Below, one piece after another: positions 6,708-40,789 of a stretch of DNA of 64,000 bases. The notes below the pieces were generated by a model. That model saw only the letters and a list, made by a program, of their open reading frames with translations. It was not told the origin of the DNA and did not search any database. A program made the position numbers and the translations under genes. Positions within the stretch are counted from its first letter, which is position 1. Each line of letters begins with the position of its first letter. The DNA is from Candidatus Bathyarchaeota archaeon (lineage in GTDB: Archaea; Thermoproteota; Bathyarchaeia; Bathyarchaeales; Bathyarchaeaceae), in NCBI GenBank assembly GCA_963772765.1, contig CAVYYP010000013.1, positions 637,243 to 701,242 of the forward strand, in the 5' to 3' direction.

Positions 6708-6900
6708 TTTCTGTCCCTCGAGAACCCAATGATCCCTCACGATTCATTCCTCGTTCCTTCCAAACAACTCAAGAATTCATATAAAAGTTTTTCTGAACCG
6801 TAACAAGTTTGCTAGGTTGTTGTTCTGTTTAATGGCTAAACGATGCTGAACAGCATTTAAGTTAGATTGCTTTCAATGATTCAACAATCTTGGTGTTTCA

Positions 6901-7489: not shown

Positions 7490-9148
7490 TTGAGAAGTGA
7501 TGCAGTTAAAGTTGGTTTTCAAAGAGCTCCTCACCGTGCCCTACTAAAGGCACTAGGACTTTCAGACGAGGACATCAAGAAACCGTTCATTGGTGTAGTA
7601 AACAGTTACACAAACGTGGTTCCTGGACACGTTCACCTACAGCAGGTAGCAGAAGCGGTAAAAGCAGGCATACGTAGCGCAGGTGGTGTTCCTTTCGAAT
7701 TCAACACAATAGGCATCTGTGACGGAATAGCTATGGGACACAACGGAATGCGCTATTCATTGCCTTCCCGAGAACTAATCGCAGACTCCGTAGAATCCAT
7801 GGTTCTAGCCCACAGATTCGACGGCATAGTCTTGATCACAACATGTGACAAAATAACGCCTGGAATGCTGATGGCAGCTGCCCGACTAAATATTCCCGCA
7901 ATAATGGTTACTGGAGGTCCAATGCTTTCAGGCAACTACAAGGGAAAGAAAGTGGGAACCGATTCTATGTTTGAGGCTATAGGCAAAGTTGCAGCAGGCA
8001 AAATGAGCGAAGAAGAACTGAAATGCCTTGAAGATGTTGCCTGTCCAACATGCGGCTCATGCAACGGGCTGTTCACAGCAAATACGATGGCGTGTGTAAC
8101 TGAAGCTCTTGGAATGTCCCTGCCCGGATGTGCCACTCCTGCCGCAATTAGTGCAGAGAGGATGAGAATGGCTCAGGCAACAGGAGAACGAATCGTTGGA
8201 TTAGTAAATGAGGACCTGAAGCCCCGAGACATAATGGTTTCTAACTCTTTTGAGAATGCAATAATGGTCGACATGGCTCTTGGAGGCTCAACCAACACTG
8301 TACTCCATGTTACGGCAATTGCGAACGAAGCAGGAGTAGACCTGCCACTATCAATATTTGACCAGTTGAGCAAACGTGTTTCACACCTTACCAACATGAT
8401 CCCTGCTGGACCATACGACATGCAAGACCTACATCAGGCAGGCGGAATTCCAGCAGTAATGAAAACATTAGAGGATTCGCTTCATCTTGACTCTGTTACC
8501 GTAACGGGAAAAACAGTCAAAGAAAACATTGCCCCTGCAAAAGTAACCAATCCTGAAGTGATTCACCCATTAGATAATCCTGTCCACAAGGAAGGCGGAA
8601 TCGCTGTTTTGTATGGAAACTTGGCAAAAGACGGCTCAGTAGTAAAGGCAGCAGGAATATCAGCCAACATGATGGTTCACAGTGGACCAGCCAAAGTTTT
8701 CGACTCTGAAGAAGACTCAATGAATGCAATCCTAAACAAGGAAATCAAGGAAGGCGACGTAGTTGTTATCCGATATGAAGGACCAAAAGGCGGACCAGGA
8801 ATGCGCGAGATGCTGTCACCTACGGCTTCTATAGCAGGAATGGGACTAAGCGAATCAGTTGCATTGATAACTGACGGACGCTTTTCTGGAGCAACAAGAG
8901 GACCATGCATCGGACACGTTTCCCCAGAAGCCGCCACTGGCGGAGCCATAGGCTTAGTAAAAGATGGCGATATCATAGAAATTGATGTTCCAAACAGAAA
9001 ACTAAGCGTAAAACTTAGCGATGAAGAACTGGCTAAACGTGCAAAATCTTGGAAACCAAAGGAACCTGCTGTCAAAACGGGTTATCTGTCTAGATATGCG
9101 CAGCTTGTTCAGCCTGCAAGCAAGGGAGCTGTCCTAAAACAGCTCTAA
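7490..9148 (+). CDS. ilvD: dihydroxy-acid dehydratase
   Basis: 552 aa with a TTG start. Contains [28 protein letters not shown] and PTCGSC (Fe-S ligands). Confidence 0.93.
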
Positions 9149-9168
9149 TCCACACCTTTTCTAGGTTT

Positions 9169-10356
9169 TCACTCGATTATGTTATGATACCATGTCAGAA
9201 TGTATTCTGGCAGGATGAGTCCTTTTTCGCTTAGTCTTGCTGTTAACAGTATTGGCAGACAGCTGAGCACATATGCTGCTCTCATGTAGAATCGTCTTGG
9301 TTTGCCCTTTTCCACTTTTTCTTCGAGCAGTATCTTTAGGTCAGAGTATATGTCAAGATTTGTTCCCTTGCGTCCGACAATGGAGAAGACTGTTCCGCCT
9401 ATTCCTTTGAATCTGTTGCACCAGCCAACAACAGGCTTTGTTCTTCCAGAGTAAGAAATCAAAATTTCTAGGTCACCCGCACGGGGATGTGGTGTGTTGA
9501 CTCCTCTGGCAATGTAAACGTTGTCTCCAAGAAACTTTTTGATGTGAAACAGCCTAACCGCAGTCATTTTTGCCACTTCTTCTGCTGTTCCTCTGCCGCC
9601 CAAGAAAATGTCGCTTCTTCTTTCAAGAAAATCCAAAACTTTCATCACTGCATGAGACTCGATTGCGTTTTCGGTAATTGACTTTAAATATGGAGCCTCT
9701 TCTGCAATGAGCTCAACTACGCGCTCTGCTGGGCTATCGTCAGCTATTGCTTCTGTTATCATCTGCAACAAAAACAGGCTGCCCAACTCAAAGATATCAC
9801 CCATTATTCCTGTCTCGCTGTAGGTGTCGGCTGCGGGCAACTGCTTTTTTTCTCTGCCCTCTACAACAACCACATGCCCATGCTGCTCAACAATCCTGGC
9901 AAGAGAAGAATTTTTGTTAGAGGTAAGCAGTCCCATAGAAAACTTTGTGCTGCCCGTCTCTTTCAGATACTTTTCAAGTTCCTCTGCTAGATGTTTAGGG
10001 TCATCAGATTCTCCGCTTCCAGAGCTGATAAGCAAAACTATCTTTTTGTGGCGTTTCTCAAGTTCTGAAGCCGCATCATACATTCCCCTTCCTGGAAAGC
10101 CAACATCTTCACGTGTGATAACAACTTTAGGCTCTTTCATCATCGCTATCTGGCTCATTGCAATGTTCAAGGAGTGGAGTGACCTTCCTGAGCCGCCGCA
10201 TACTATACAGTCTGCAGCTTTCAAATCATCGTATAGAGGTTGCAGTTTATTTTTTGTTATTTTTAGAAGATTTTTGTTAATTCGTTCGACGTACTCTACG
10301 GCAGAAATTTCTTGGCTAACTTTCGTCACCATCCATCTAAAACACAATGATTCCAT
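9169..10356 (-). CDS. tandem SIS-domain sugar-phosphate isomerase-like protein
   Basis: Two SIS-like halves are present. The first reads CGGSGRSLH...LLISSGSGESDD. The second reads GGRGTAEEVAKMTAVRLFH...ILISYSGRTKP. Confidence 0.55.
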   Translation of the reverse strand: MESLCFRWMVTKVSQEISAVEYVERINKNLLKITKNKLQPLYDDLKAADCIVCGGSGRSLHSLNIAMSQIAMMKEPKVVITREDVGFPGRGMYDAASELEKRHKKIVLLISSGSGESDDPKHLAEELEKYLKETGSTKFSMGLLTSNKNSSLARIVEQHGHVVVVEGREKKQLPAADTYSETGIMGDIFELGSLFLLQMITEAIADDSPAERVVELIAEEAPYLKSITENAIESHAVMKVLDFLERRSDIFLGGRGTAEEVAKMTAVRLFHIKKFLGDNVYIARGVNTPHPRAGDLEILISYSGRTKPVVGWCNRFKGIGGTVFSIVGRKGTNLDIYSDLKILLEEKVEKGKPRRFYMRAAYVLSCLPILLTARLSEKGLILPEYILTWYHNIIE

Positions 10357-20101: not shown

Positions 20102-20880
20102 TTATTGGTCGTTTGGGTCTTGTGGGTTTGTTCCTTTTGTGATTTCTTCGCTGTCTGTTAGTCCGTCTCCGTCTGTGTCTGGATTTTGTGGGTCTGTTCC
20201 ATAGTATATGTATTCCATTGCGTCCTCTAGTCCGTCTCTGTCAGTGTCGCTGTTGGGTTGTTCTTCTTCAAAATAGGGAGTTGGGAGGCAGGTGGTGCAT
20301 GGGTCGTTTGGGTCTTGTGGGTTTGTTCCTTTTGTGATTTCTTCGCTGTCTGTTAGTCCGTCTCCATCAGTGTCTGGATTTAGCGGATCAGTTCCATAGT
20401 ATATGTATTCCATGGCATCTTCCAATGTATCTCCATCAGAATCACCATTGGATGCTGTCTGCTCTTCCTCAACATAAGCTGTTGGGATGCAATGTGGTAC
20501 ATGGGTCGTTTGGATCTTGCGGATCTGATCCTTGTGTGATTTCTTCACAGTCTGTTAATCCATCTTCATCAGTATCTGGATCTTGTGGGTCTGTTCCATA
20601 GTATATGTATTCCATGGCATCTTCCAATGTATCTCCGTCAGAATCGCCGTTGGATTGTTCTTCTTCAAAATAGGGAGTTGGGAGGCAGGTGGTGCATGGG
20701 TCGTTTGGGTTTTGTGGGTTTGTTCCTTTTGTGATTTCTTCGCTGTCTGTTAGTCCGTCTCCGTCTGTGTCTGGGTTTTGTGGGTCTGTTCCATAGTATG
20801 TGTATTCCATTGCGTCCTCTAGTCCGTCTCCGTCAGAGTCACCATTGGCGACTGGTTGCTCTTTTTCAATGAGCATCCCA
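20102..20880. repeat. about 195-202-bp tandem DNA repeat, four copies
   Basis: The unit start GGGTCGTTTGG(G/A)TCTTG(T/C)GG recurs at about 20106, 20301, 20503 and 20698. Confidence 0.75.
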
Positions 20881-20969
20881 TTTTGATCAGAAAAAACCGT
20901 AGTTCCAAACATAAGCAAAATAACAAAAATAACTGCCAATGAAGTAACAATTATCTTGCTTTTTCTCAC
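20102..20969 (-). pseudogene. secreted Ca-binding (thrombospondin type-3-like) tandem-repeat protein, split by one frameshift
   Basis: A signal-like N-terminus (MRKSKIIVTSLAVIFVILLMFGTTVFS) is followed by four ~65-aa repeats: D(S/T)DGD(G/T)LEDAMEYIYYGTDPQNPDTDGDGLTDSEEITKGTNPQDPNDPCTTCLPTPYFEEEQ. ORFs 20469-20969 and 20102-20548 are the same gene in two frames, with an extra base near 20488-20495. Confidence 0.7.
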
Positions 20970-21521: not shown

Positions 21522-21972
21522 GTCTTTCTCCTTAGATTGTTAGTGAGAAAATAAATTGTTAAAAATTGGGTGGGTACAAATGTAGGTACCCATCTTGACA
21601 CTGTTTTTCCGAAAATAGTACGTCAAGCACGAAAACATAATTTCACTGTTTCTTCTATGTGATTTCATAGGCTCTTTCATTCTTGGTAATTTATTTTTCA
21701 ATCTATTTTTAGGCATTCTATTGACATAAATCGGTTTAATGAAATTCATTTTGTTGGAGGCTTCAACTACATTCTTAGACTTCATTTTAGACAATCCGAT
21801 GAGAATGGTTACTTCAGTGGTTCCATCAGTCGAAACTCTCCCATTTTTGACTTTGTATACCTACTGTTGTATATTTGGCATCTCGATTCTTGAAGTATTG
21901 TTTTTTTGTTTGATATTTCGCAGTCATATGCTAAAACAAACGATATAATGCGCGAGTGACCCGACCAAAATT

Positions 21973-22581
21973 TTAAACTTTCAAATTACGAAGTTCTTCA
22001 ATAACGTTATCCCAAGAATCTAAGGTAAATTTCTTACCCTTTGCAAGATAGTTAGATTCAAAAAGAATACATGTTGTTACTGGGAGTTTCTTTGTTTCTG
22101 CGTAATAATTGATGGGCTTGTTTTTTCTTTTTTTCTCAGAAACAGGTTTTCTTTCTTGCAAGGATATGTAGAAGCAACAAATATTCTTATTTAATTTCTT
22201 TGCATTTTCGAAATTGTCACTAATACCCTTAACCACCTCTTGAACAGTTTTCTTGCCTTTTTGTGGATATTTTCCTCCATATATGCCATGAACTTTGAAT
22301 TCAAAAAGACCTGCGATGTCGTTTGAATTGTAGTATTGTGGCAAGATTTCTTTAGCTCCCTTTTTGATAACCGCCCCATCCCATTCAATCCACTCTAAAT
22401 CTTTAATCCAAACGGGACCAAGAACAGGTGAGAATTTATCTGTGTATTTGGCGATATGCTTCATTAGAATTGAAGCAAAAATGTGTCCACGAAAGCGACT
22501 GTTATTTTTTCTATTCGGTGCTTCCTTAAAAGAAAAATTTTCGAATTCTAATAAAATTTCTTGAGACTCTAATTCTAACAT
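21973..22581 (-). CDS. hypothetical protein
   Basis: 202-aa ORF, lysine-rich, with no confident motif. Confidence 0.4.
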   Translation of the reverse strand: MLELESQEILLEFENFSFKEAPNRKNNSRFRGHIFASILMKHIAKYTDKFSPVLGPVWIKDLEWIEWDGAVIKKGAKEILPQYYNSNDIAGLFEFKVHGIYGGKYPQKGKKTVQEVVKGISDNFENAKKLNKNICCFYISLQERKPVSEKKRKNKPINYYAETKKLPVTTCILFESNYLAKGKKFTLDSWDNVIEELRNLKV

Positions 22582-22741
22582 GATGATAGGTTGTGTTTAA
22601 TGGTTAAGTAATTTTTCCGCTATACGTGGGCGAAGAATTTGTGGAAGATCTACAAATCCGATTTCAAAATGCGCGCCCCTAGTTTCTAAAAGAGTGAGAC
22701 TTTATTTGATGAAGCAAAAAACACAATGTTGTGTATGGGTT

Positions 22742-23083
22742 TCACGCTTGAGGGGGAGTAAAAGTGATTTCATGAAATTCTTCTGTTAATTGCATAGCTT
22801 TTTTCCACAATGGTTTCATATTAGGATGCTTTACTTTCCAATCTCCATTCATTTGATTAACAAGAAGATTACTGTCAGAATAACATTCAACATCATTTAC
22901 CAAATTCCAACGCAGAAGTTAATGCTGAACTTAGTGCCTTGTATTCAACTTGATTGTTAGTTCCTATCCCCGCATATTTCGAGCGTCTTTTTTTGACCTA
23001 TTTCTATCGTTTAAAATAATAAAAGCTATAGCAGATGGTCCTGGATTTCCTCTGCAAGCTCCATCAGTATATATTCTTAGCAT
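22742..23083 (-). pseudogene. RNase HI (type 1 ribonuclease H) pseudogene
   Basis: The reverse strand reads MLRIYTDGACRGNPGPSAIAFIILNDRN.., then in shifted frames GIGTNNQVEYKALSSALTSALEFG and VECYSDSNLLVNQMNGDWKVKHPNMKPLWKKAMQLTEEFHEITF. There are at least two frameshifts or stops, and the C-terminus is missing. Confidence 0.7.
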
Positions 23084-23281
23084 CTATAGCACTCACATCA
23101 ATTTTGTAGATAAACATGCCTTCAAAACTATTTCGCGTTTTCCTTTGAGGGGTAATTTTTTTGAGTTTTTACCCCTCACACTGTTAATCATTCTATGGTA
23201 CCTCCATGTACCATTCCTATTCCATATTGTACCATTCCGTTATTAGGAGTAAAAGTGGTATGTCCTCCAATTGACCGCAAA

Positions 23282-23392
23282 CCGTCGTTTCGCCCGTCGT
23301 CCGTCGTTGGTTGGTTGGTTTGGTTGGGTTAAAATTTAACCCCTAAACCCAAACAACTACTTCAATGATACGGTTACTGACTGACTGACTGA
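23282..23392. repeat. cluster of short tandem repeats
   Basis: Contains CCGTCGT-type repeats (23282-23307), (GGTT)n (23309-23329), the near-palindrome GGGTTAAAATTTAACCCC (23326-23343), and (CTGA)4 (23376-23392). Confidence 0.8.
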
Positions 23393-23469
23393 CACAACCA
23401 CAATATTGGTGCGCGCGCAAAGATCACCAAGAACCTCAAGAACTAGAAAATAATGATTAACTATTCATT

Positions 23470-24270
23470 TCAATTGCGTGTGCGTGCCACTTTAGATAAA
23501 TTAGGTGTTTCATCCCATATTTTATCAAAATAATCAATCAGTATTGATACTAAACTAGGATTATTTGTTAATAAAGAAGATTTTTCGGCCAATTCCGTAT
23601 CGACTGAGTTATCTATAATTACTTTCATCTTATCAAAAACATTTATTATTGCCGAAGGTTCATGTTGAATAAATTTGAGTTCATAATTAGGATAATTTGT
23701 TAATTGATTTACGATTTTAGATATGTTATGTTATCTTCAGGTTTTTCAAGAAGAACTCTCATTTTTACTCCTTTTTCTAATGCAATCTTAGCTACTTCTG
23801 CAAAGGTTATGACTGTTTGTGGGAATCGTTTCCATGAAACTAAGAAATCAATTTGTGATTTTGCTAAGGTAATTTCTTCTGTTCTTCTTAATATTGTAGC
23901 GTGATTTTTAGGTATCAAAACAAAATCTGGTTCAATATCATTTAAGAATTAATTTATAATTATCTACATTTTTTAGATATGAGTTCAGCTTTTTCGTTCA
24001 ATATGTTTATGTTTCTTCATTTTTCTTTTTTAGTAAAAATGAAATACCTTCTTTCACAGATATTGATTTGTATTTTCTTGGTCGTTCTAATGAAGATTCA
24101 ACGAGTCCCGATATTGCTAAGTTTTTCTAAAATTCTATAAATTTCCTGTCGAGGAACACGAGACTATTTTTGAATTTCACAAACACTAGAAAATGTTTAT
24201 GATCCATAGATTTAGAAAAACTTTGGCTTGATTAATCGAAAGACCAAAGTGAACTAATGTTTCAATAATA
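23470..24270 (-). pseudogene. TrmB-family regulator pseudogene
   Basis: The reverse strand, spread over several frames, reads ETLVHFGLSINQAKVFLNL.., SRVPRQEIYRILEKLSNIG / GLVESSLERPRKYKSISVKEGISFLLKKK, and a C-terminal domain ...AKSQIDFLVSW..GVKMRVLLEKPED*..YELKFIQHEPSAIINVFD..LIDYFDKIWDE. Multiple stops and frameshifts, and no start codon. Confidence 0.6.
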
Positions 24271-24468
24271 TCATATCAAGAATACAATGTAATTTCTCCC
24301 CAAAACATAGTCTTTAAGACTATTTTATCAATATAAATTTTGTCACCCATAGGGTGAGAATCATAGTATTAAATATTGTATATTCTGAAAGATGTGGCTT
24401 TGTTGAGGGAGTAATGCGTTCGTTTTTTGAAGTGCTAATCTTCAACACAATAAAAATAGGTAAAAAAG

Positions 24469-27070
24469 ATGCAAAAGCTAAATAAAATAAAAAAAATATC
24501 TATTATTGAGTTTGTTATTTTTTTCTTTATATTAGTCACATTGATCCCTATTGGCAGTGCTCAAGTAGATGGAGCTCATGGACTACACACTACTGCTGAA
24601 GATACAGGTTCAGTACCACTTCCAGCTGGAGTCACTCCTGACATTACAATTAAGACTGATATCTATCTAAGTTTCAGACCAAATCCTGTAGGAATAAATC
24701 AAATATTTCTAGTCAATCTTTGGAATGACCCAGGTCCCTCATATGCTCGATTTTTTAGAGATTATAAAGTGTCACTTATGAGACCTGATGGATCAGTAGA
24801 AGAAATATTCATTGATTCTTATCCAGCTGACGGGACTGCATGGTTTGAATACATAGCTGATCAAATAGGCGAATGGCAAATAAAATTCGAATTCCCCGGA
24901 GGTTACTTCCCCGCTGGAGACTATAAAGTAACATCTGGGTCACAGTCAGGCTATGTCGAATCCTACACCAAATCAGTCTACTATTTACCTGATTCAACAG
25001 AATGGCAACCACTGACGGTCCAAGAGGATATTGTATACTCATGGCCTGAACCAGGTCTTCCAACTGACTACTGGACTAGACCCGTGTCTCCAGAGAACAG
25101 GCATTGGTATCCAATTCTAGGAAATTATCCATGGCACGGACCAGGAGTAGCAGCAGACTGGCCAGCAGACACTAACAGAATTTGGAACAGCCGTCAAATG
25201 TTTACTCCATATGTACAAGCTCCAAACTCAGCTCACATAGTGTGGGACAGAGCTGAAGGTATATCTGGTGTCATGGGTGGAGATTATGGCTCTAAATCGC
25301 AGACTCAAGGAGGAAACACACCTAGCATAATTTATGTTGGAAGATGCTATGACTCAAAAACAAGAGTATATAATGGTGAAACCCAAAGTGTTTGGACATG
25401 CACAGATCTCAGGACAGGTGAAGTGTACTGGGAACGAACAGATGTATCTGCACCATCGTATATCGAATATTCTGAAGGTTCCGAATCTGTTCCTGGTGCC
25501 GAAGCTTCGGTGGGTGTCTCAGTAAGTCTGTTACGGATAGCGGGAAATCGGCTACAAAAATTCAATCCTGCAACAGGGGATATGACTTTAGATCGTGAAA
25601 TTCCTGCTTTTAGGTCTACAGAATACTATCGAAATGGTTACGTGCTAAGTACCTCAAGTGATTAGTGATGAGAATAAGGTATTTCGTCTGATCAATTGGA
25701 CAACGTTAGGCTCTACGAGCAACTTTGCCAGCAGAGTTGTAAGTAATATCAGTTTTCCGATGGACACTTTAGGACAGTCTCGAGATTACAATGCAATGGT
25801 AGCATTTGTATTTAGAGAAACAAATGCATGGGATGCCAATGGACTAAAACCAATTAGCGGATTCCCATACGTTAATATCACTATCGATGGTGGAACTGGA
25901 ATTAGACATGGTTTCAGAGTAATTGCTGCAGATCTACTTAACAGGACAATGGTTATACAACAATACTTATGATGATGAACCATACAGTGCAGCACAAATG
26001 CCATACAGCCAATCTTGTCACATCGCTGAAAATGGAAAAGTAGCAATACTAATGCGCAAAGGTTACTTCAATTTCTACGATTCAAGGACAGGACAATTCC
26101 TATACCAATCAGAAACAATGGATTATCCATGGGATGAACCAGGATTTGGTGCATACAACATAGCTTCCGCTTATGGAATGATTTTCAGAGGCGGTTATGG
26201 TGGTGTTTACGCATTTGACTGGGACACAGGAAAAATTGTTTGGAAATATGAACAAGTAGCACTTAGCCAATATGAGACACCATATATCAATGAAGAGGGA
26301 GTCACCGTTTACTCTTGGAACGGAGGAGTCCAAGTAGCTGATGGTAAGGTATTCTGGCAAAACAACGAACACACACCAACCCAACCTATAACTAGAGGAT
26401 GGGGACTACACGCAATAGATGCTTACACTGGAGAAGGCGTTTGGAACATCACTTCAATGATGTCACCAGGAGCTGTAGCAGACGGATACTTAACCGCATC
26501 ATGTAACTATGACGGTTCAACATATGTCTTTGGAAAAGGCAAAAGCGCAACTACAGTAACAACTCCTGACGTCGCAGTTCCAAAAGGAACAGCATCACAA
26601 TCAAAGGAACAGTTCTTGATCAATCGCCAGCGCAATCAGATACTCCATGTGTATCCAAAGATTCGATGACAACTCAAATGGAGTACATTGCATCTTCCAG
26701 CAACCAATCGATGGACTTATGGGGCAATGAAATAATTACAGGTGTTCCTGTAACATTAACTGCAATTGGCGAAGATGGAACATACGTAGATATTGGAACA
26801 ACTACACAGAAGGATATTCTGGAACATTCGGAAAATCTTGGATTCCAACAGCAGAAGGCACATACAAAATTATTGCTTCATTTGCAGGAGACGATTCTTA
26901 CGGTAGTTCTTCAGCAACAACTTGGGTTACAGTTGGTCCAGCGACGCAGCAGGCGGAGCAATAGAACCAGAACACCCACTAATCAGCACGACATGGCAAT
27001 CATAATTGCTGTAATCGCAGTTGCAATAATAGCAGCAGTCGCATATCTAGCGCTACGGAGACGAAAATAA
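24469..27070 (+). pseudogene. large beta-propeller-type surface protein, paralog 1 (at least 4 frame breaks)
   Basis: ORFs 24469-25665, 25658-25972, 25923-26669 and 26666-27070 are colinear with the paralog at 41150-43765. Shared stretches include LPAGVTPD..LSFRPNPVG, LTVQEDIVYSWPE..LPTDYWTRP, RLINWTT.GS.SNFASRVVSN and ETMDYPW. It has a signal-like N-terminus and a C-terminal TM helix ending LRRRK. Confidence 0.7.
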
Positions 27071-27516
27071 ACCAAAATTTTCCCTCCCTCTTTTTTGGGA
27101 GTAAAATAAAGTTTAGAAGAATAATGGAGAGCTGAAAGGATTCAATCGCAAAGATTAAGCATCTTTCTCATCCTTTAAGATTGCTTTTTTGTGATTGCTC
27201 ACTCATCAACAACTGTGATTGAGTCTCAGCAAATCTCCATCATTCTAATTATTTTAATCAAGCTATGCGCGGCGCGCATGATTTGTTTGATTAACAACTA
27301 TGTAAAGAGTTCCTTTACATCATCGAGTTGATTTCGAATATTGCGATAAACGCTAGAAAAGATGTAGAAAGATCCTAATGGTTTTAGTTGGTATTCAATC
27401 CAAAGAAAGAATGGATTTCACTCTCCAACTGAATATATAAGAGGTAATGGAACTTGGAAAGGCGTTTCAATCCTTGTTTAATGGATTTCTTCCGCCGACT
27501 GTGCTCGCATGGAGTT

Positions 27517-27559
27517 GGATAATAATAAACAGACAAAAAATGAGTGTTCATTATTATCC
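27517..27559. other. perfect stem-loop inside the 77-nt 'spacer'
   Basis: GGATAATAAT (27517-27526) pairs with ATTATTATCC (27550-27559), with a 23-nt loop. Confidence 0.8.
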
Positions 27560-27628
27560 GATGATCTGGTTTTGCCGTTTCAATCCTTGTTTTAATAAAT
27601 TTCTTCTGCCGACAATATCAATTTTCAC

Positions 27629-27680
27629 GGATGAGGAGGAGGACGCAGAAAATTTTTTTCCTTCCCCCTCCTCCTCATCC
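27629..27680. other. perfect stem-loop inside the 98-nt 'spacer'
   Basis: GGATGAGGAGGAGG (27629-27642) pairs with CCTCCTCCTCATCC (27667-27680), with a 24-nt loop. Confidence 0.8.
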
Positions 27681-28243
27681 ACAAAGAATTTCACACCTAA
27701 ACGACTACCCCGTTTCAATCCTTGTTTTAATGGATTTCTTCCGCCGACCTGACGTCTATGCTGACCTTGTTGACATGAAAAGCAGCATCTTCCCTGATTC
27801 TGCGATTGTAACAATTCGAGACTCTGGATTAGGATACTGGGTAGAATTCGTGGAAGATTCAGAGGTTCTGGATATTATGCAAATGTCAGGCGACGCATGC
27901 CAATCATATCCGGCTGTACATCACAGCACTCTTTATGTCGGCAATGTTTACGCTCTGATAGAGTTTATTCCGCCTCCAAATCGGTTTCCTGCGCCTCCGC
28001 TTTGATTGTTTTTGCGTAAAATCTATCAAGCCAGCCGCTCTACATTATACTGGTGGGTGTTCTTGACAAACTATTGTTGTCCAGAATGCGGTGGGACTAA
28101 AGTCACATGGAGCATGAGACTCAAAAAGGCTGTTTGTCCAAAAGATAACACGCCTGTAAGCGAATTCATTCTCCGCTAGCATCTCACATTCTGGCATGTA
28201 CTAAAACGCAGTTGGCAGCGTCAGTTGATTATGGGAAAATCTG

Positions 28244-28642
28244 CTATTTTATCAGCTCTTTTAGAGTTTCTGCCTCTTCTCTGAGTGCAGCCACTTCTTC
28301 CTCAAGAGTATCTAGTCTTTCGGTTGCTGCTGTTCGCAGGTTCTTTATTTCTTCTAGCAGTTTTCTTTTCTGTTTCTTCAATACTTCAAGCTTTTCCAGT
28401 CTGCCGGTCGGTAAATCCAGTTGTTCGTCAAGTTCGTTTTCTGGAGCCGTAGCGTCCGCATGAAGGTTGATTACTGGCGGGTATGATGGCTCTTCTTTTA
28501 CAACTTCAATTTTTGTTAAACAGTATGGGCAGGCGTAGTACGTGACTTTGTCTTCTCCAACAGAAAAGTTGGTTACCCAAATCGGATTATCGAACTCTTT
28601 TTGACAAGATATACAGGGACATTTATGCTTCATGCTTACCAA
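28244..28642 (-). CDS. zinc-ribbon plus coiled-coil protein
   Basis: The N-terminus has CPCISC...CPYC (four Cys). The C-terminus is heptad-like: LEKLEVLKKQKRKLLEEIKNLRTAATERLDTLEEEVAALREEAETLKELIK. Confidence 0.55.
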   Translation of the reverse strand: MVSMKHKCPCISCQKEFDNPIWVTNFSVGEDKVTYYACPYCLTKIEVVKEEPSYPPVINLHADATAPENELDEQLDLPTGRLEKLEVLKKQKRKLLEEIKNLRTAATERLDTLEEEVAALREEAETLKELIK

Positions 28643-36395: not shown

Positions 36396-37348
36396 TCAAA
36401 AATATTCTCCTAATAGTTCATGTCTTTTTTCTATAGAACTTTTTGCAACTGCAGCTTGTGAAATGTAATACTGAAAATCCATTAGTTTTCGATATTTTCT
36501 GTCATAATCTAAGCCTTTTCCAGATTCAATTCGCAATTTATTAATAAATTTGATGTAAAACTCAGCAAAAATCTGTAATTTTTCTATTTCTTTCTTAATA
36601 ATTAACTCTTCAAAGAAAAGATAAGCTGAAACTATTGAAGCCCTATTTCGAAAATCCTCAGCATTTTCTCCAAAATATTTGTTCATATAATTTAGTGTCA
36701 CTTTAATTCTCTCAATCTCCACTCCAAATTTTTTCAAATTCGCATATTGTTCAAAGAAGCGTTTCAAGTCTCTAAATCTTGCAGAATAAAAACTATCTTG
36801 TAGCGAACGGTAAAAAGAATTTATGCATATTTGGGCGATAAACAGTTTCTTTTGCAAATCTCCTCTCAGGTATATTCACTTTAATGAAAAATGGGTGTTC
36901 TTTTCCAACTTTAAAAACAAAATCTCTAATATCTCCTTTCATTGCATGTAAGTTTAAAATTGCATTTAGGGGAGAACCTAATTGTAACCTTTGAAAAGAG
37001 AAGTCTCAAATCATCCTCTTCAGCTTTGGTTATAATAGCAACTGTGAATTTATACTCGAAAAGGTCATTTCGCTCATTTTCTGGCAATTGGTCGATGTTT
37101 CTTCCATCTAAAAGAGTTAATTCACCACTAAAAAATTCAATTATCGAAACAATACGTTGTTGTCCATCAACACAGTCATAGGTTTCAGAATCATCTGCTT
37201 TATACAAATACAGCTTAGGTATATCCAGTCCCCTTTGCATGGAATCTATTAGTTTTTTCTTCAAAGTTGATTCCAAACTGTTGGTTCTCTTTGATAATCT
37301 GGATATTGTATTAGGTTCCTCTTGGAATACAATTTTTTTGCGGACCAT
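36396..37348 (-). pseudogene. DUF262 (ParB-like nuclease superfamily) protein with two apparent frameshifts
   Basis: The DGQQR motif is present (YDCVDGQQRIVSIIEFF). After ...EDDLRLLF the conserved continuation QRLQLGSPLNA...GKEHPFF lies in another frame, with the shift at a T4 run on the minus strand. ORF 36396-36857 supplies the helical C-terminus. Confidence 0.65.
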
Positions 37349-37383
37349 TCTTTTATTGTTCTAATCATTTCTAATTGCCAAAT

Positions 37384-38412
37384 CTAATCGCCTAGGAACA
37401 TGTCAACATAGTTCAAATTCATTTTATCAATCGGAATGTGCTTATCTAGGAAAACTTGAATGTATCTTTTTAACCAATCTTCATAAACATTTTTGGATTT
37501 ATACTCTACTAAATCTTGACAGTTAGGTAATTCTCCTAGGACTTTCACTTCTTTAAGGAAACCATTATTTTTTCTAATTTCTTCTCCACCTTTGTGGCTT
37601 TTTATTAATTCAATTTGATAAGGTCTTTCAGCTCTTAATTGAGTCTTAAAAAGTAAGGACAATAACCCCCAATCATTTTGACTAAGAGAACAACCTACAA
37701 TTCTTAGTTTATCACAATCAAGTAGCTCGAATGCTTTGCCCCATAACATATTAAAAGGATATCTTTCTCGTTGTTTTTCCACACCCGGAGGAATCCACAA
37801 CATTTCACTTCTTTCCTTTGCTTGATTTTCATCTATTTTTGTTGACGGTATGCCACTCTTCCAATTGAAAGACCCATGCAATTTAATTAATGGCAAACAA
37901 TCATAAATCAGATTATATGTTCCCGATTCGCAATTACATTTAATACCATAATTTACCCCATTTAAAACGTTCTGACAAGCTTGGTCTAATAAACTATCAT
38001 AGTTGACAGTAATTAATCCTGTAAGTTGTTCTATTTTTTTAACTTCTTCAATTTCATGTATTTGTAGTAATGTCATTGTAAGTATGGGGTCAATAGTTTT
38101 ATCGTCCAGTAATAATTTATCTTCTATTATGTCACAGAATATACTTTTGAGCTTACTTGCTGCATCTGAATATCTTTGTATGCTCATAGATTCTAATAGA
38201 CTTATGTAAATTTCAATATCTGTTATATCATCTGTTGCAATGTTGCCTAAAACATCTGCCAAATCACGGTCCTCAATTGCCTTTTCTACAACTAACTCAG
38301 ACACAGCCCGCAAAGAAAGAGATTGTTCTATGCCCGAGTAAGAGGCTTCAGCCATAGTTGAACCAGCACCAAATAGGTAAACAATTCTTTCGGGGGAGGC
38401 ATAAATAGGCAC
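37384..38412 (-). CDS. SIR2-like (SIR2_2-type) protein, candidate NADase effector
   Basis: Sirtuin-fold motifs appear in order: LFGAGST (GAGxS), TVNYDSLLD (TxNxD), LIKLHGSFNW (catalytic HG), then RIVGCSLSQNDW. 342 aa and intact. Confidence 0.7.
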   Translation of the reverse strand: MPIYASPERIVYLFGAGSTMAEASYSGIEQSLSLRAVSELVVEKAIEDRDLADVLGNIATDDITDIEIYISLLESMSIQRYSDAASKLKSIFCDIIEDKLLLDDKTIDPILTMTLLQIHEIEEVKKIEQLTGLITVNYDSLLDQACQNVLNGVNYGIKCNCESGTYNLIYDCLPLIKLHGSFNWKSGIPSTKIDENQAKERSEMLWIPPGVEKQRERYPFNMLWGKAFELLDCDKLRIVGCSLSQNDWGLLSLLFKTQLRAERPYQIELIKSHKGGEEIRKNNGFLKEVKVLGELPNCQDLVEYKSKNVYEDWLKRYIQVFLDKHIPIDKMNLNYVDMFLGD

Positions 38413-38596
38413 TTATTGAAATAAAGTATTTCTTAAAATATAAAATAGTTCTCTTGAGAATGTTTTATCGCTTTTTCCTTTGTTCTTTATGCTTTTCAAT
38501 TTGGAAGTGATAGCTATTCGTGATTCAGAAGTTTTAATTACAATATAAGAAGAAATCACATAACAGTGAAAGAATAATTAGAAAAGGGGTTATCTG

Positions 38597-39352
38597 ATGG
38601 ATTATTCAGAGTTTGTAAAAAAGCTCAAGGATATTGAAAAAATGGGATTCATCAAATCCCATCGGAAAGGTTCAACAGGAATAGGAAAAACATTAGAAGA
38701 CCTTCTTGGAATAGCTGAAAATAATATTCCAGGTCCTGACTTTTCAAAACATGAACTAAAAAGTGCAAGAAAAAATTCTAGTTCTATGCTAACTCTATTC
38801 ACTAAAGCTCCTCTTCAAAAAGGAGCTAATAATCAATTACTTGAAAAATGTGGTTATCAACAGCGTAAAGTCCCCATAGATTATCAACAATTTGACTCTT
38901 TTCTAGGAACAAAAAAAGAAGGTGAAAATAATATTCCTTTGTATGAAAAAGAATTGCATTCAACAGTTGACGCTATTAAGCCCAACGCTCAAAATTTGAT
39001 ATTAAGAATAGTGGGTAACAAATTGATTATTGGAAACGATAAGGACGTGGATGCATATTATGAAAATAACATTTTGAAAGAAACCTTTGAAAAAAAATAT
39101 AATAAACTTGTGTATGTTTTGGCTGAAAATAAGAAAGAGAAGGGTGAGGAATTTTTTTGGTTTAATGAGGCATATCATCTTGATGGTTTTAGTTTCGAAA
39201 GATTTTCAACATTAGTTGATGAAGGTTTATTGAAAGTTGACCTACGTATGGGACATTATTCGAATGGTCGACCTCATGACCATGGAACAGGTTTCAGAAT
39301 AATGCCTAGATATTTACCTAGATGTTTTGAAAAAATTGAGACCATATTATGA
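38597..39352 (+). CDS. MvaI/BcnI-like type II restriction endonuclease
   Basis: GFIKSHRKGSTGIGKTLEDLLGIAENNIPGPDFSKHELKSARKNSSSMLTLFTKAP matches my recollection of the MvaI_BcnI family N-terminus. It is convergent with a methyltransferase. Confidence 0.6.
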   Translation: MDYSEFVKKLKDIEKMGFIKSHRKGSTGIGKTLEDLLGIAENNIPGPDFSKHELKSARKNSSSMLTLFTKAPLQKGANNQLLEKCGYQQRKVPIDYQQFDSFLGTKKEGENNIPLYEKELHSTVDAIKPNAQNLILRIVGNKLIIGNDKDVDAYYENNILKETFEKKYNKLVYVLAENKKEKGEEFFWFNEAYHLDGFSFERFSTLVDEGLLKVDLRMGHYSNGRPHDHGTGFRIMPRYLPRCFEKIETIL

Positions 39353-39417
39353 TTATTTTGGCGGTCTCCAGAAATCGAGAAATATATTCCATTGTTGCTC
39401 CTAAAGAGATGAAATTA

Positions 39418-40269
39418 TTAGGCCAACCAAATATTCCAACTCGATTTACAAGATTCCTTTTTATCCCAAATGAAAGTATTTCTGAATTCAAATCCCGCTT
39501 TCTCTAACGCATCTATTACATAAGCATGTGTCACATACCTTTTATTTTTCCACCAAACATCATTTATATTAACTATACAATGTGCTTTTTCTTTCATTAG
39601 AGGCAAGATTCCTGCGTAAATTTCTTCTAAGGTTTCTGCATATTGTTGGTAATTCATTATACCTAAATCTCTAGGGTCTTTGGAATACTGCTGAACTTTC
39701 AAATATTGACCGTTCTTACGTTCATCTCCTCTGATGCTTTTATTCAATCTTTTTCGATTTAGCATATTAGCATAAGGTGGAGAAGTTATACACAACGAAA
39801 CGGTGTTCTCTTCTAGATATTCAGGAATGTTTTTTGCATCATCAACAATGCCTAATTGTTGAGTTTCAATTCCAAATCTAGTTTGGCTAAGTCTTTCTTT
39901 TGCGACCTCTATGTAACCTTCATGCAAATCAAAACCTAAAGCATTTCTTTTCAAATCTTGAGCAGCAATTAATGTAGTTCCAATTCCAACAAATGGGTCC
40001 AAAACAAGTTCTCCCTCATGGGTAAGAACTTCAATAAAATGAGCAGGAAGAGAAATAGGGTAAACAGCGGGATGAACATTCTTATCTCGAACATCTCTCC
40101 CAGTGTAATAAAATTCTTTGATTGTAACCATTCCTTTAACCCATTCTTTTGCAGTAATACAACTAATATGATTAGTTTGACAATCACAAGTTTTTTTATG
40201 GGCAATTGCTAGCTTCTTGTTTTCCACTTTTAGAGCCTTCTTAAACAGTCTTTCCAAATTAACTATCAC
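39418..40269 (-). CDS. DNA methyltransferase (SPPY-type, probably N4-cytosine)
   Basis: Motif I is LDPFVGIGTTLIAAQ and motif IV is ITSPPYANM. 283 aa. Confidence 0.8.
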   Translation of the reverse strand: MIVNLERLFKKALKVENKKLAIAHKKTCDCQTNHISCITAKEWVKGMVTIKEFYYTGRDVRDKNVHPAVYPISLPAHFIEVLTHEGELVLDPFVGIGTTLIAAQDLKRNALGFDLHEGYIEVAKERLSQTRFGIETQQLGIVDDAKNIPEYLEENTVSLCITSPPYANMLNRKRLNKSIRGDERKNGQYLKVQQYSKDPRDLGIMNYQQYAETLEEIYAGILPLMKEKAHCIVNINDVWWKNKRYVTHAYVIDALEKAGFEFRNTFIWDKKESCKSSWNIWLA

Positions 40270-40352
40270 TATTCATATACTTTTGGAAATATGAGTTCTG
40301 TGTTTATCTTCTTGGACTCCGAAAACTAAAACCTAAAGGTTCTAAGAGTTTA

Positions 40353-40490
40353 ATGATTTTTCAAATTTTTCCTCTGAAAGAAAGCTTAGTTTGGGCGCTT
40401 AAACGGGAAATAAAGGCTTTAGAACAAATGAATCATGAATCAGAGGATAAATCTGAGGTTCTTAGTGAAGCTTCTTCTAAAGAAGGTTCA
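40353..40490 (+). pseudogene. Int(N) fragment of the split integrase
   Basis: The ORF MIFQIFPLKESLVWALKREIKALEQMNHESEDKSEVLSEASSKEGS runs in frame into the att repeat (WWAGPDLNRRPSARQ). The same att translation precedes Int(C) at 35426. Confidence 0.6.
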
Positions 40491-40568
40491 TGGTGGGCCG
40501 GACCGGATTTGAACCGGCGACCTTCTGCACGTCAAGCAGATGTCCTAACCGAACTAGACGACCGGCCC
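40491..40568 (-). tRNA. tRNA-Val (anticodon GAC), with encoded CCA
   Basis: Sequence: GGGCCGGTCGTCTAGTTCGGTTAGGACATCTGCTTGACGTGCAGAAGGTCGCCGGTTCAAATCCGGTCCGGCCCACCA. A cloverleaf folds by hand. The anticodon loop is TTGACGT. Confidence 0.9.
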
Positions 40569-40712
40569 TACAGCCATTTTAGGATGCTTTTCTCGTATTT
40601 AAGTTTCAGTTTCTTTCAGGCACCCAAACATAAGCATTAATATGCCAAACTGAGGAAATGATTTTCCCATAATGCTTAATAGCGTTCCTGTCAGGTTTAA
40701 AATATCAAAAAT

Positions 40713-40789
40713 GGGCGGATAGATCAGCCTGGAAGATCGCAACGTTGGCATCGTTGAGGCCGCGGGTTCAAATCCCGCTCCGTCCACCA
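40713..40789 (+). tRNA. tRNA-Ala (anticodon GGC), with encoded CCA
   Basis: Sequence: GGGCGGATAGATCAGCCTGGAAGATCGCAACGTTGGCATCGTTGAGGCCGCGGGTTCAAATCCCGCTCCGTCCACCA. The G3:U70 pair is present. The anticodon loop is TTGGCAT. Confidence 0.9.

Follow-up and report, generated by a model that had tools for sequence, protein, structure and literature searches.

Perfect stem-loops beside ectopic CRISPR repeats in close strains, tentatively read as non-guide crRNA-like RNAs

The known products of CRISPR repeats in ectopic positions include regulators (CreA and CreR), modules that guard the cas genes (CreTA) and decoys made by viruses (Racr). To our knowledge, the neighbor of the repeat in all of these is either a short guide or nothing. 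The creA/CreTA and CreR loci are degenerate "minimal CRISPRs" that give rise to regulatory crRNA-like RNAs (PMC8501985, PMC10120712). Degenerate creA repeats stay processable by Cas6, with the stem kept and the rest degenerate (PMC8501985), and in the CreT toxins a Shine-Dalgarno sequence and a start codon lead into rare codons for Arg or Ile, or into Pro codons in a row, with a stable hairpin downstream (PMC8501985, PMC10120712). The role of solitary repeats as RNA decoys is established (PMC10651486), and virus-borne mini-CRISPR arrays with two to four repeats and without cas genes are attributed to Medvedeva et al. 2019, as cited in PMC10651486. In type I-B and type III systems, crRNAs typically begin with a 5′ handle of 8 nt and are trimmed at the 3′ end (PMC5965381). 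At the locus described here, a long perfect stem-loop of freely variable sequence takes this place next to the repeat, with three cases in close strains.

The locus lies within a 64-kb stretch of DNA (the window) and is well supported as an ectopic mini-CRISPR of four CRISPR-DR7-type repeats (GTCGGCGGAAGAAATCCATTAAAACAAGGATTGAAAC) that read as crRNA on the minus strand and have neither neighboring cas genes nor a leader (Table 1). The repeat family, the gene content and source annotations suggest an uncultured, archaeal, Methanosarcinales-like genome. All four copies were detected on the minus strand by the Rfam model, for which the gathering score is 37 and is exceeded by R3 alone; repeat quality falls from R3 toward the terminal copy, Rdeg. 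Local alignment of Rdeg to the repeat gave exact identity in TTCAATCC and AATGGATTTC (18/18) and in 6 of the 19 other positions, and the stem arms of Rdeg are still paired in the predicted fold. The lengths of the three spacers (34, 77 and 98 nt) are dissimilar, and the two longer ones are not typical of the family. Searches of the window and of viral contigs gave no match to S34, which contains a TATA-like ATATATAA/CTTATATA.

The neighborhood consists of chromosomal housekeeping genes (Pfam scan), with pseudogenes flanking the array on both sides, and the cluster is found at a strain-variable junction. No Cas domain was found by Pfam in 40 ORFs of the window, mainly the larger ones. There is no true leader because R3 abuts a truncated pseudogene, whose remnant carries stop codons in L004 and L039. 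In the crRNA sense, the region upstream of R3 held only TATA-like matches with two mismatches, none of them convincing as a promoter. The full repeat had no match in the collection of genome contigs, and its 20-nt 5′ half gave only chance matches, and no canonical array, in genome and metagenome contigs.

Table 1. Coordinates of the repeat cluster and adjoining features in the window
Feature	Coordinates	Strand	Remarks
Strain-variable segment ending at the array	21635..27711		2.5 kb of unrelated DNA instead in L001
Two further palindromes just past Rdeg	27254..27320		Nested TTAATCAA/TTGATTAA around ATGCGCGgCGCGCAT, then ATGTAAAG/CTTTACAT
Rdeg, degenerate terminal repeat	27393..27429	-	CRISPR-DR7, 19.7 bits
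S34, sole normal-length spacer, 34 nt	27430..27463	-	Unstructured in fold
R1, 36-nt repeat with 1-nt loop deletion	27464..27499	-	CRISPR-DR7, 35.1 bits
S77, long inter-repeat segment	27500..27576		17 + 43 + 17 nt
HP1, 10-bp perfect stem, 23-nt loop	27517..27559		Inside S77
R2, repeat with 3 substitutions	27577..27613	-	CRISPR-DR7, 29.2 bits
S98, long inter-repeat segment	27614..27711		15 + 52 + 31 nt
HP2, 14-bp perfect stem, 24-nt loop	27629..27680		Inside S98
R3, best-kept repeat	27712..27748	-	CRISPR-DR7, 44.9 bits; ends in AUUGAAAC
Truncated pseudogene remnant at the expected leader site	27749..28005	+	Homologue of the 3′ portion of a longer ORF in L039, the 82%-identity relative

Two of the three inter-repeat segments are, with good support, modules around perfect palindromes and not captured spacers. 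The initial annotation had placed a hairpin in each of them, and both stems and their coordinates were recovered from the sequence and with a repeat finder: HP1 is formed by GGATAATAAT and ATTATTATCC and lies exactly 17 nt from either repeat, as originally described, and HP2 is formed by GGATGAGGAGGAGG and CCTCCTCCTCATCC, at a distance of 15 nt to R2 and of 31 nt to R3. The observation that stems start with GGAT and end with ATCC is true for HP1 and HP2 but not a general rule, since a third hairpin (HP3), found in sister strains, starts with GTAG. When both strands were folded, S77 and S98 were more stable than expected (z scores of -3.1 to -6.3), reaching -21.6 kcal/mol on the plus strand (z -3.1) and -20.5 kcal/mol on the minus strand (z -4.7) for S77, and -29.8 (z -6.3) and -38.9 kcal/mol (z -5.5), respectively, for S98. 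Perfect stems of at least 10 bp arose in 0.18% of composition-matched shuffles of S77, and stems of at least 14 bp in 0 of 20,000 shuffles of S98. Across the entire window, only five different hairpins combine a perfect stem of 10 bp or more with a loop no longer than 40 nt, and two of them fall within these 175 nt. HP1 and HP2 are far beyond chance.

The stem arms are also periodic, with (AAT)3 in HP1 and (GAG)3 in HP2. Triplet-periodic arms occur in all three stems (empirical chance of 0.006, 0.0014 and 0.006) and in none of the 41 other hairpin arms of the window. Homology among the three hairpins or their loops was not significant (p between 0.05 and 1), and an apparent CAGnnAAAAAA loop motif was dropped. 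An affiliation of the stems to a known RNA family, raised at the outset, received no backing from Rfam 15, where HP1 and HP2 gave sub-threshold matches to generic miRNA hairpins (the best at 32.1 bits, where the gathering score is 90) and no family reached its gathering score. The plus-strand ORF at 27447-27752 spans the array exactly, and a coding reading was considered and rejected: 7% of spacer shuffles leave the frame open, and the product has no homologue among 5.8 billion proteins.

The length of the long segments (77 and 98 nt, against 34 nt), their hairpins beyond chance and the lack of a detectable protospacer bear out the earlier view that they are not ordinary protospacer-derived spacers. 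BLAST against phage and plasmid records gave no match, and neither did exact scans of viral contigs with the S98 flank, the joined S77 flanks and S34, in what was a weak test that needed exact or near-exact matches. No self-target was found either, with no 5+5 seed or 11-mer match of any spacer in the 64 kb. One could still think of a non-canonical acquisition, in which Cas1-Cas2 took prespacers with a central palindrome extruded as a cruciform; the ruler would therefore have measured the flanks only (17 + 17 = 34 nt), and the whole 77 nt would have been integrated. The exact 17 + 43 + 17 layout of S77, with flanks that total the 34 nt of the normal spacer, is what such an event would leave. 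Moreover, the long spacers are the two nearest to the would-be leader side, and the inter-repeat content differs between strains, as spacers do. However, the flanks of S98 total 46 nt and not 34, the hairpin of L004 comes without the second repeat that integration would create, the window lacks a leader as well as cas1 and cas2, and the protospacer searches were negative both for whole sequence and for flanks joined across the hairpin. We know of no precedent for the acquisition of cruciform prespacers, and we consider this origin improbable.

A mobile-element origin has to be weighed against the same anatomy. S77 resembles a 34-nt spacer split midway, as if MITEs or palindromic derivatives of the IS200/IS605 type had been inserted into ordinary spacers, and in L004 a TCAA follows the base of HP3 at 9 nt on the 3′ side, a position that resembles the right-end geometry of IS608. 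Nevertheless, none of the three hairpins has a second copy in the window or in the fetched loci, target-site duplications are lacking, the three hairpins are unrelated and no transposase is found nearby. When viral contigs were scanned for the patterns of HP1 and HP2, all matches were unrelated; these were AT-rich chance palindromes plus a high-GC viral palindrome (in L029) that has only its arms in common with HP2, and HP1 and HP2 were accordingly dropped as a repeated element. PHROGs gave no informative match at the locus, and tblastx against viral loci with the same repeat family detected no similarity. An insertion of this kind is close to refuted.

Comparison among close relatives revealed three structural haplotypes in strains that are 99% identical. 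In L001, the flanks of the variable segment are 99% identical to the window; the gene order of this contig is that of distant relatives and is therefore ancestral. Two contigs from independent samples (L004 and L005), again with a flank 99% identical to the window, carry a solitary repeat with no second one. Next to it, at a distance of 2 nt, is HP3, a perfect 10-bp hairpin that folds into 12 bp, has a sequence unrelated to HP1 and HP2, and lies after the repeat in the crRNA sense (in L004, it precedes the repeat in the plus sense). The statement in the initial annotation that shape is kept and sequence is not thus gains independent support from an unrelated perfect hairpin beside a sister-strain repeat. 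The ordinary 35-nt spacers that would have spoken for chance palindromes are absent from the relatives, the close ones having a solitary repeat and another hairpin. Distant relatives (flanking protein 82% or 45% identical) have neither repeat nor hairpin. The window-type array was found in one assembly only, and searches through the overlapping and flanking ORFs brought no further one on record, the flanking 134-aa product being present in a single contig. The turnover among 99%-identical strains and the absence in the relatives at 82% and 45% argue against an indispensable function.

These observations give weight to the possibility that the array is dead, a decaying remnant at a recombination hot spot, and that its hairpins are neutral DNA palindromes with no function. 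Their origin would lie in DNA synthesis, through fold-back or template switching, or in the correction of quasi-palindromes, and the stems would be perfect because they are young. Besides the three haplotypes, the adjoining truncated pseudogene, the pseudogenes on both sides and the decay of the repeats fit this scenario, as do the additional palindromes just past Rdeg and the failure to find a homologue, target or RNA family for the hairpins. Yet such a process must place perfect hairpins beside the repeat three separate times, against a background of approximately five such hairpins with 10 bp or more in the 64 kb, and it leaves unexplained the triplet periodicity of all three stems, the G·U bias in the crRNA sense (see below) and the retention of the Rdeg stem arms. 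We regard it as a serious possibility, if a somewhat doubtful one.

The two strands are not equivalent with respect to pairing. R3, R1 and Rdeg all have an intact AAUCC/GGAUU repeat stem. In R2, comparison with the Rfam model structure showed that one arm has changed, in the crRNA sense, from AAUCC to AAUUU, which still pairs with GGAUU via two G·U pairs. Similarly, the 11th pair of HP1 is a G·U on the minus strand, where this one pair lengthens the stem to 15 bp, and HP2 has three outer G·U pairs on that strand, with a stem that lengthens to about 20 bp (-38.9 versus -29.8 kcal/mol). On the plus strand, all of these G·U pairs are A·C mismatches. Substitutions that preserve pairing through G·U occur in the crRNA sense only, a bias that amounts to about four to six partly adjacent changes (p of roughly 0.02 to 0.06). 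The fold of the whole array is also lower on the minus strand (-110.9 kcal/mol, z -4.5) than on the plus strand (-94.5 kcal/mol, z -2.9).

Our favored, though tentative, reading is that the hairpins are non-guide stem-loop RNAs with a repeat handle, i.e., decoy or regulatory crRNA-like RNAs. The palindromes would be RNA stem-loops transcribed together with the repeats in the crRNA sense, and a Cas6-type cut within each repeat would release RNAs that start with the 8-nt AUUGAAAC handle. Between the handle and the stem-loop there would be a stretch of 31 nt in S98, 17 nt in S77 and 2 nt in the sister strains. Such RNAs would possess a Cas-binding handle and little or no usable guide, and the hairpin might resist both 3′ trimming and backbone assembly; a handle without a usable guide and a trimming-resistant hairpin would therefore make them stabilized non-guide crRNA-like RNAs. 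They could act as decoys or regulators of the solitary-repeat kind, and not as immune memory. What the analysis shows directly is the anatomy, the non-random nature of the hairpins, their recurrence in other strains and the strand bias of the compensating changes; transcription, processing by Cas6 and any effect on Cas proteins are inferred. The following observations speak for this reading. All four copies are CRISPR-DR7 repeats on the minus strand, and the hairpins are not due to chance, share triplet-periodic stems and are paired with the repeat again in L004 and L005. The pairing-preserving changes and the lower array fold both point to the crRNA sense, and Rdeg has kept its stem arms and decayed elsewhere. 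Finally, the family is also represented by solitary repeats in viral contigs; one such copy, with 34/37 identity to R3, has the sense orientation within a viral operon. Adjacent hairpins are only slightly in excess at these viral repeats, with some of them inside coding sequence, and this line of evidence was dropped.

Several observations weigh against these non-guide RNAs. The 64 kb contain no cas gene, no canonical array with the 5′ half of the repeat was detected in the genome and metagenome collections, the crRNA sense has no convincing promoter and the window-type array is known from a single assembly. The turnover of the locus and its absence from relatives also speak against an indispensable function, the G·U bias derives from few changes, and RNAs acting as decoys leave the triplet periodicity of the stems unexplained. 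Our confidence in this reading is low to moderate, with the neutral palindromes close behind.

If the plus strand were the functional one, the product would be an anti-repeat followed by a hairpin, a tracrRNA-like or antisense RNA that pairs with pre-crRNA made elsewhere and blocks or redirects its processing. In the plus sense, R1 is indeed followed by HP1 after 17 nt, and R2 by HP2 after 15 nt; the TATA-like ATATATAA in S34 puts a start at about 27462, with R1 beginning at 27464, and the HP2 loop has on this strand a run of U7, which we take to be an archaeal termination signal. Against this arrangement, the TATA match of S34 is better on the minus strand (one mismatch versus two), the compensating G·U changes favor the minus strand, and in L004 the hairpin comes before and not after the repeat. 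We know of no tracrRNA-like RNA for systems with a repeat of the type I or III style. A functional plus strand seems quite unlikely to us.

Oligo-T is the archaeal termination signal, and the loops of all three hairpins carry A/T runs of 6 to 7 (T6 on the minus strand of HP1, T7 on the plus strand of HP2 and T6 in HP3), as if terminators or insulators had been caught between ectopic repeats and prevented transcription from running across the border of the variable island and the conserved flank. Two hairpins of the variable island, at 23146 and 24016, have T-run loops too. The layout, however, is not that of an intrinsic terminator, contrary to one of the roles first contemplated for the stems: a scan for bacterial-type terminators calls neither HP1 nor HP2, no T tract follows the stems and the loops are 23 to 24 nt long. 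A T run in the loop would end transcription before the 3′ arm, and the stem would therefore be pointless. The triplet periodicity is not accounted for either, and termination or insulation as the role of these hairpins is hard to sustain.

In a comparison with CreT, the hairpins would be RNA toxins, each a mini-ORF with consecutive identical codons plus a stabilizing stem-loop, controlled by a CRISPR effector via the adjoining degenerate repeats in an addiction module of the CreTA type. Degenerate repeats, strong hairpins and identical-triplet runs are all found within 300 nt. The minus strand of HP2 reads AUG AGG AGG AGG ... CCU CCU CCU CAU CCG UGA, a 17-codon ORF within the hairpin, and AGG is fairly rare (5.8 per 1,000 codons). 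ATA, by contrast, is common (21.5 per 1,000 codons), and therefore HP1 cannot work by sequestration of a rare tRNA. In addition, no Shine-Dalgarno sequence with a start codon precedes any of the hairpins, the triplet runs are within the stems and not ahead of them, and HP3 has no start codon. The guide of CreTA is complementary in part (seed positions 1-5 and 7-11) to the promoter of the toxin, which has a PAM, whereas the 64 kb contain no seed-type or 11-mer target of a spacer, and the locus is neither in nor beside a cas locus. The rare-codon model was rejected by codon usage and layout, so that the toxin-antitoxin family envisaged in the initial annotation is very unlikely to apply.

A bolder version of the favored reading, which we consider unlikely, would take the repeats as processing signals for undescribed non-guide cargo RNAs, i.e., periodic stem-loops that are swapped like spacers and either block the CRISPR effector or stall translation at identical-codon runs in the manner of CreT. 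Cas6 would free these stem-loops with a crRNA handle, their action would be that of a decoy or an assembly block, and what the array carries would be structured effector RNAs instead of immune memory. If they are real RNAs of either sort, arrays could deliver structured non-guide RNAs via Cas6 processing, which would be a new use of CRISPR repeats. If they are not, there is a mutational puzzle in the origin of triplet-periodic perfect palindromes beside CRISPR repeats. In either case, array callers and spacer-based host-virus matching should not count such segments as spacers.

Among the known systems, the locus can be compared with four. Like the Racr and solitary repeat units (PMC10651486), it consists of one or a few repeats at a distance from cas genes; the stem on which Cas6 depends is kept in the cluster, the form of the sister strains is a true solitary repeat, and viral contigs bear solitary repeats of its family, including the one 34/37 identical to R3. 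It differs in being chromosomal, with no recognizable mobile-element genes and no promoter identified, in its three or four repeats with long structured inserts, and in the adjacent long hairpin, the obligatory presence of which is not a described feature of Racr. The virus-borne mini-arrays are comparable in that the same repeat family is present as mini-arrays in five viral contigs (L022-L025 and L028), although the spacers of these are about 34 to 37 nt long and lack hairpins, and the locus has no viral context. What links the locus to ordinary orphan or degenerate arrays is a repeat of a known family (CRISPR-DR7), a degenerate terminal copy, one spacer of 34 nt and the lack of cas genes nearby; what sets it apart is that two spacers measure 77 and 98 nt around perfect hairpins of 10 and 14 bp, that a leader is missing and that sister strains have one repeat and another hairpin in place of the array. 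The mini-arrays of creA/CreTA and CreR (PMC8501985, PMC10120712) show the same divergent decay of the repeats, with the stem nucleotides kept and a degenerate distal repeat, and CreT shares the stable hairpins and the runs of identical triplets. Unlike CreTA, the locus is outside a cas locus, has no partially complementary target in the 64 kb and lacks the layout of Shine-Dalgarno sequence, start and rare codons, and its hairpins lie between the repeats and not beside them.

The Rfam CRISPR-DR7 model matched four copies of one repeat, all of them on the minus strand: R1, R2, R3 and a degenerate terminal copy, Rdeg. This strand, the crRNA sense, runs R3 - S98 - R2 - S77 - R1 - S34 - Rdeg (S98, S77 and S34 being the inter-repeat segments, named by their lengths in nucleotides), and the repeat terminates in AUUGAAAC, the 8-nt sequence that commonly serves as the 5' handle of type I and III crRNAs. 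S34 has a normal spacer length and is unstructured; the other two are oversized, and each contains a perfect hairpin (HP1 in S77 and HP2 in S98). S34 also includes a TATA-box-like sequence at 27430-27441 (ATATATAA / CTTATATA), which would direct transcription to start close to the first base of R1 on the plus strand and within Rdeg on the minus strand. We scanned 40 ORFs from across the window, for the most part larger ones, against Pfam and found no Cas proteins; the scans identified genes of branched-chain amino-acid and histidine biosynthesis, IleRS, ribonucleotide reductase, PQQ-propeller surface proteins and a restriction-modification pair.

Coordinates of the repeats, hairpins, ORFs and defense genes discussed in the text
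Feature	Position	Strand	Details
Rdeg	about 27393-27429	-	19.7 bits; degenerate
R1	27464-27499	-	35.1 bits; 1-nt deletion
R2	27577-27613	-	29.2 bits; 3 substitutions
R3	27712-27748	-	44.9 bits (gathering score, 37)
HP1	27517-27559		arms GGATAATAAT / ATTATTATCC, loop of 23 nt; from sequence and repeat finder
HP2	27629-27680		arms GGATGAGGAGGAGG / CCTCCTCCTCATCC, loop of 24 nt; from sequence and repeat finder
101-codon ORF	27447-27752	+	starts in S34, stops 2 nt past R3, spans the array exactly; regarded as spurious
76-aa ORF	27775-28005	+	directly by R3; pseudogene remnant
GmrSD N-terminal fragment	36926-37348		defense islet
MvaI/BcnI-family restriction endonuclease	38597-39352		defense islet
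N4/N6 DNA methyltransferase	39418-40269		defense islet
tRNA-Val and tRNA-Ala genes	40491-40789		divergent; defense islet directly adjoins

Both hairpins reported in the initial annotation were recovered where it had placed them. Exactly 17 nt separate HP1 from each neighboring repeat, and 15 and 31 nt separate HP2 from its two. Both strands fold stably, with -21.6 kcal/mol (z -3.1) on the plus strand and -20.5 (z -4.7) on the minus strand for S77, and -29.8 (z -6.3) and -38.9 (z -5.5), respectively, for S98. When the segments themselves were shuffled, perfect stems of 10 bp or more appeared in 0.18% of the S77 shuffles and stems of 14 bp or more in none of 20,000 S98 shuffles. Across all 64 kb of the window we counted just five distinct perfect hairpins with a stem of 10 bp or more and a loop of up to 40 nt, and two of them are within these 175 nt. 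The view that S77 and S98 are something other than ordinary spacers is thus well supported, both by their size (77 and 98 nt versus 34) and by hairpins beyond the shuffle expectation. Two further palindromes are found at 27254-27320, about 70 to 140 nt past Rdeg, one nested (TTAATCAA...TTGATTAA around ATGCGCGgCGCGCAT) and the other ATGTAAAG-5 nt-CTTTACAT, making four strong hairpins in about 430 nt.

For comparison with sister strains and relatives, we used as an anchor the 129-aa zinc-ribbon gene by the array (28244-28633, minus strand), which also occurs on six further contigs from NCBI, JGI, ENA and Logan assemblies. These contigs are 97.6 to 99.8% identical to the window on the right side of the array, and similarity stops at the repeat. 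Two of them, L004 and L005, from independent samples, carry a single repeat, GTTTCAATCCTCGTTTAATGGATTTCTTCCGCCGAC, at the break, followed 2 nt later by a third perfect hairpin, HP3 (GTAGTAGTGC - 17 nt - GCACTACTAC), so that the crRNA sense reads repeat, AA, 12-bp stem-loop; no second repeat was found in either, and the DNA after HP3 is unrelated. From the background hairpin rate of the window, we estimate a chance of roughly 1% that an unrelated sister-strain junction would have a perfect 10-bp hairpin only 2 nt away from the repeat, and some coupling of the repeat with perfect hairpins seems to be real. The GGAT and ATCC stem ends, which the initial annotation had pointed out in both stems, are indeed common to HP1 and HP2 but are absent from HP3. 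As for the other contigs, in L001 a scaffold gap falls at the array position and L003 ends inside an R1-type repeat, and the array as found in the window was seen in one assembly only. Neither L039, whose homologue of the 129-aa protein is 82% identical, nor relatives with homologues of about 45% identity have a repeat or a hairpin at this position, and the ordinary 35-nt spacers that would have pointed to chance palindromes or local rearrangement were seen in none of these genomes.

In place of a 6-kb low-GC segment of the window (21635-27711), which includes a frameshifted PQQ-propeller surface-protein gene (24469-27070), L001 has 2.5 kb of unrelated genes (7716-10220) between flanks that are 99% identical. 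One boundary of the segment coincides with a CRISPR repeat and the other, near 21635, has none. The L001 gene order is the older one, since it matches that of the ~45%-identity relatives. In L039, a longer ORF continues through the point where R3 starts in the window, so the array adjoins a pseudogene that has been truncated, and a true leader is absent. Sequence homologous to the 76-aa ORF is interrupted by stop codons in both L004 and L039; in L039 it forms the 3' portion of a longer ORF (102 aa) whose N-terminus has a membrane helix. We regard the cluster as recent and lineage-specific, a fast-rearranging ectopic array. Such turnover and the pseudogene context would fit neutral, DNA-level palindromes in a dead array at a recombination hot spot, a close rival to the RNA-based reading that we prefer and one to which we give somewhat long odds; it leaves the recurrence of the hairpins, their triplet periodicity and the strand bias unexplained.

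No sequence homology was detectable among HP1, HP2 and HP3, and in all three the arms are triplet-periodic: (AAT)3, (GAG)3 and (GTA)2-3. The same run lengths occur in random 10- or 14-mers of the window at frequencies of 0.006, 0.0014 and 0.006, and not one of the window's 41 other hairpin arms is periodic in this way; the joint improbability is extreme, for a feature noticed post hoc. Every loop has an A or T run of 6 to 7, to which we give little weight, as this intergenic DNA is AT-rich; two other variable-island hairpins (23146 and 24016) also have one. In the crRNA sense, AAUUU replaces AAUCC in the 5' stem arm of R2, and two G·U pairs with GGAUU keep the stem; the HP1 stem reaches 15 bp via one G·U pair, and HP2 gains five pairs, three of them G·U. 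All these G·U positions are A·C mismatches on the plus strand. Rdeg is exact at 18 of 18 positions in the stem arms and their immediate neighbors and at 6 of 19 elsewhere, and the whole array folds to -110.9 kcal/mol (z -4.5) on the minus strand versus -94.5 (z -2.9) on the plus strand. This strand evidence is modest (four to six partly adjacent changes, p of roughly 0.02 to 0.06) and suggests that constraint on a minus-strand RNA shaped the evolution of the cluster and its hairpins alike. Plus-sense anti-repeat RNAs, with each anti-repeat followed 15 to 17 nt later by a hairpin, are a minor alternative. So is the uptake of cruciform prespacers by a Cas1-Cas2 ruler, for which 17 + 17 = 34 suits S77 but S98 and L004 do not fit.

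Our best reading, a tentative one, is that the hairpins are Cas6-released minus-strand stem-loops. Cas6-type cleavage would free RNAs with a crRNA handle and little or no guide, hence their putative role as decoy or regulatory crRNA-like RNAs (8-nt crRNA handles and 3' trimming are reviewed in PMC5965381).

Known terminators, toxin-antitoxin modules and RNA families, all raised in the initial annotation, gave no match. A bacterial-type scan calls neither HP1 nor HP2 a terminator, and no Rfam family fits the hairpins. CreT-type (CRISPR-regulated) toxins require a start codon with a Shine-Dalgarno sequence, then a run of rare or proline codons and, further downstream, a hairpin that stabilizes the RNA; here, the identical-triplet runs are inside the stems, no Shine-Dalgarno sequence plus start codon is located ahead of them, and HP3 has no start codon at all. 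In 23 window genes, ATA is common (21.5 per 1,000 codons) and AGG fairly rare (5.8 per 1,000). The minus strand of HP2 reads AUG AGG AGG AGG ... CCU CCU CCU CAU CCG UGA, which keeps a small residual probability for a CreT-like toxin. Miniature transposons are, like toxins and terminators, a minor alternative: no extra copies, target-site duplications or transposase were found. A search of the entire window for spacer matches, as 11-mers or of seed type (5+5), gave none. Both unit lengths (114 and 135 nt) are divisible by 3; the 101-codon frame is open in 7% of shuffles and has no homologue, and we regard it as spurious.

Elsewhere in the window, a defense islet (36926-40789) has a local GC content of about 32%. 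Two overlapping minus-strand ORFs at 20102-20969 are rich in bacterial TSP3 (thrombospondin type 3) calcium-binding repeats; their DNA has a repeated unit of ~54 nt, and one L001 segment matches four places in this DNA.

The 24-nt core of the repeat was found in 16 viral contigs, mostly as a solitary copy or as a mini-array of two repeats whose spacers have a normal length of about 34 to 37 nt. In L016 (9240-9320), a solitary, sense-oriented repeat (coding strand), identical to R3 at 34 of 37 positions, encodes with its first bases the last residues and stop codon of a 101-aa viral ORF. In L017 and L020, a solitary repeat adjoins the ribosome-binding site of a viral gene on its upstream side. 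Read in the crRNA sense, this copy (L017, 6068-6104; identical in L020), which resembles the Methanosarcina mazei CRISPR repeat, is immediately upstream of GGAGA and the ATG of a 418-aa ORF, and therefore a Cas6 cut would trim the 5' UTR of the mRNA. Such occurrences imply that mobile elements actively use ectopic copies of this repeat family; solitary repeats can serve as RNA anti-CRISPRs (PMC10651486). The viral contig L026 (about 330-490) has three different CRISPR-repeat-like units in tandem, two with CCCCTTACGGGG / CTCCTTACGGAG stems and a third that is the DR7-type core, in what looks like a multifamily decoy cluster. The high-GC viral contig L029 contains, at 6802-6855, a palindrome whose 14-nt arms are identical to those of HP2, flanked by GAGTCTCAAA(C/A)TTGAGACTC iterons in what looks like an origin; because its loop and flanks are unrelated to S98, the identity is probably a convergence of low-complexity arms.

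None of the viral copies carries long perfect hairpins like those described here. The stem retention in Rdeg, together with the pairing-preserving changes, is the pattern of creA, the degenerate mini-CRISPR repeats of CreTA toxin-antitoxins that are still Cas6-processable (PMC8501985). The hairpin-bearing segments are a real and statistically solid oddity, of moderate interest, in an ectopic or degenerate mini-CRISPR, a known kind of object of which they are, on present evidence, a variant rather than a separate category.
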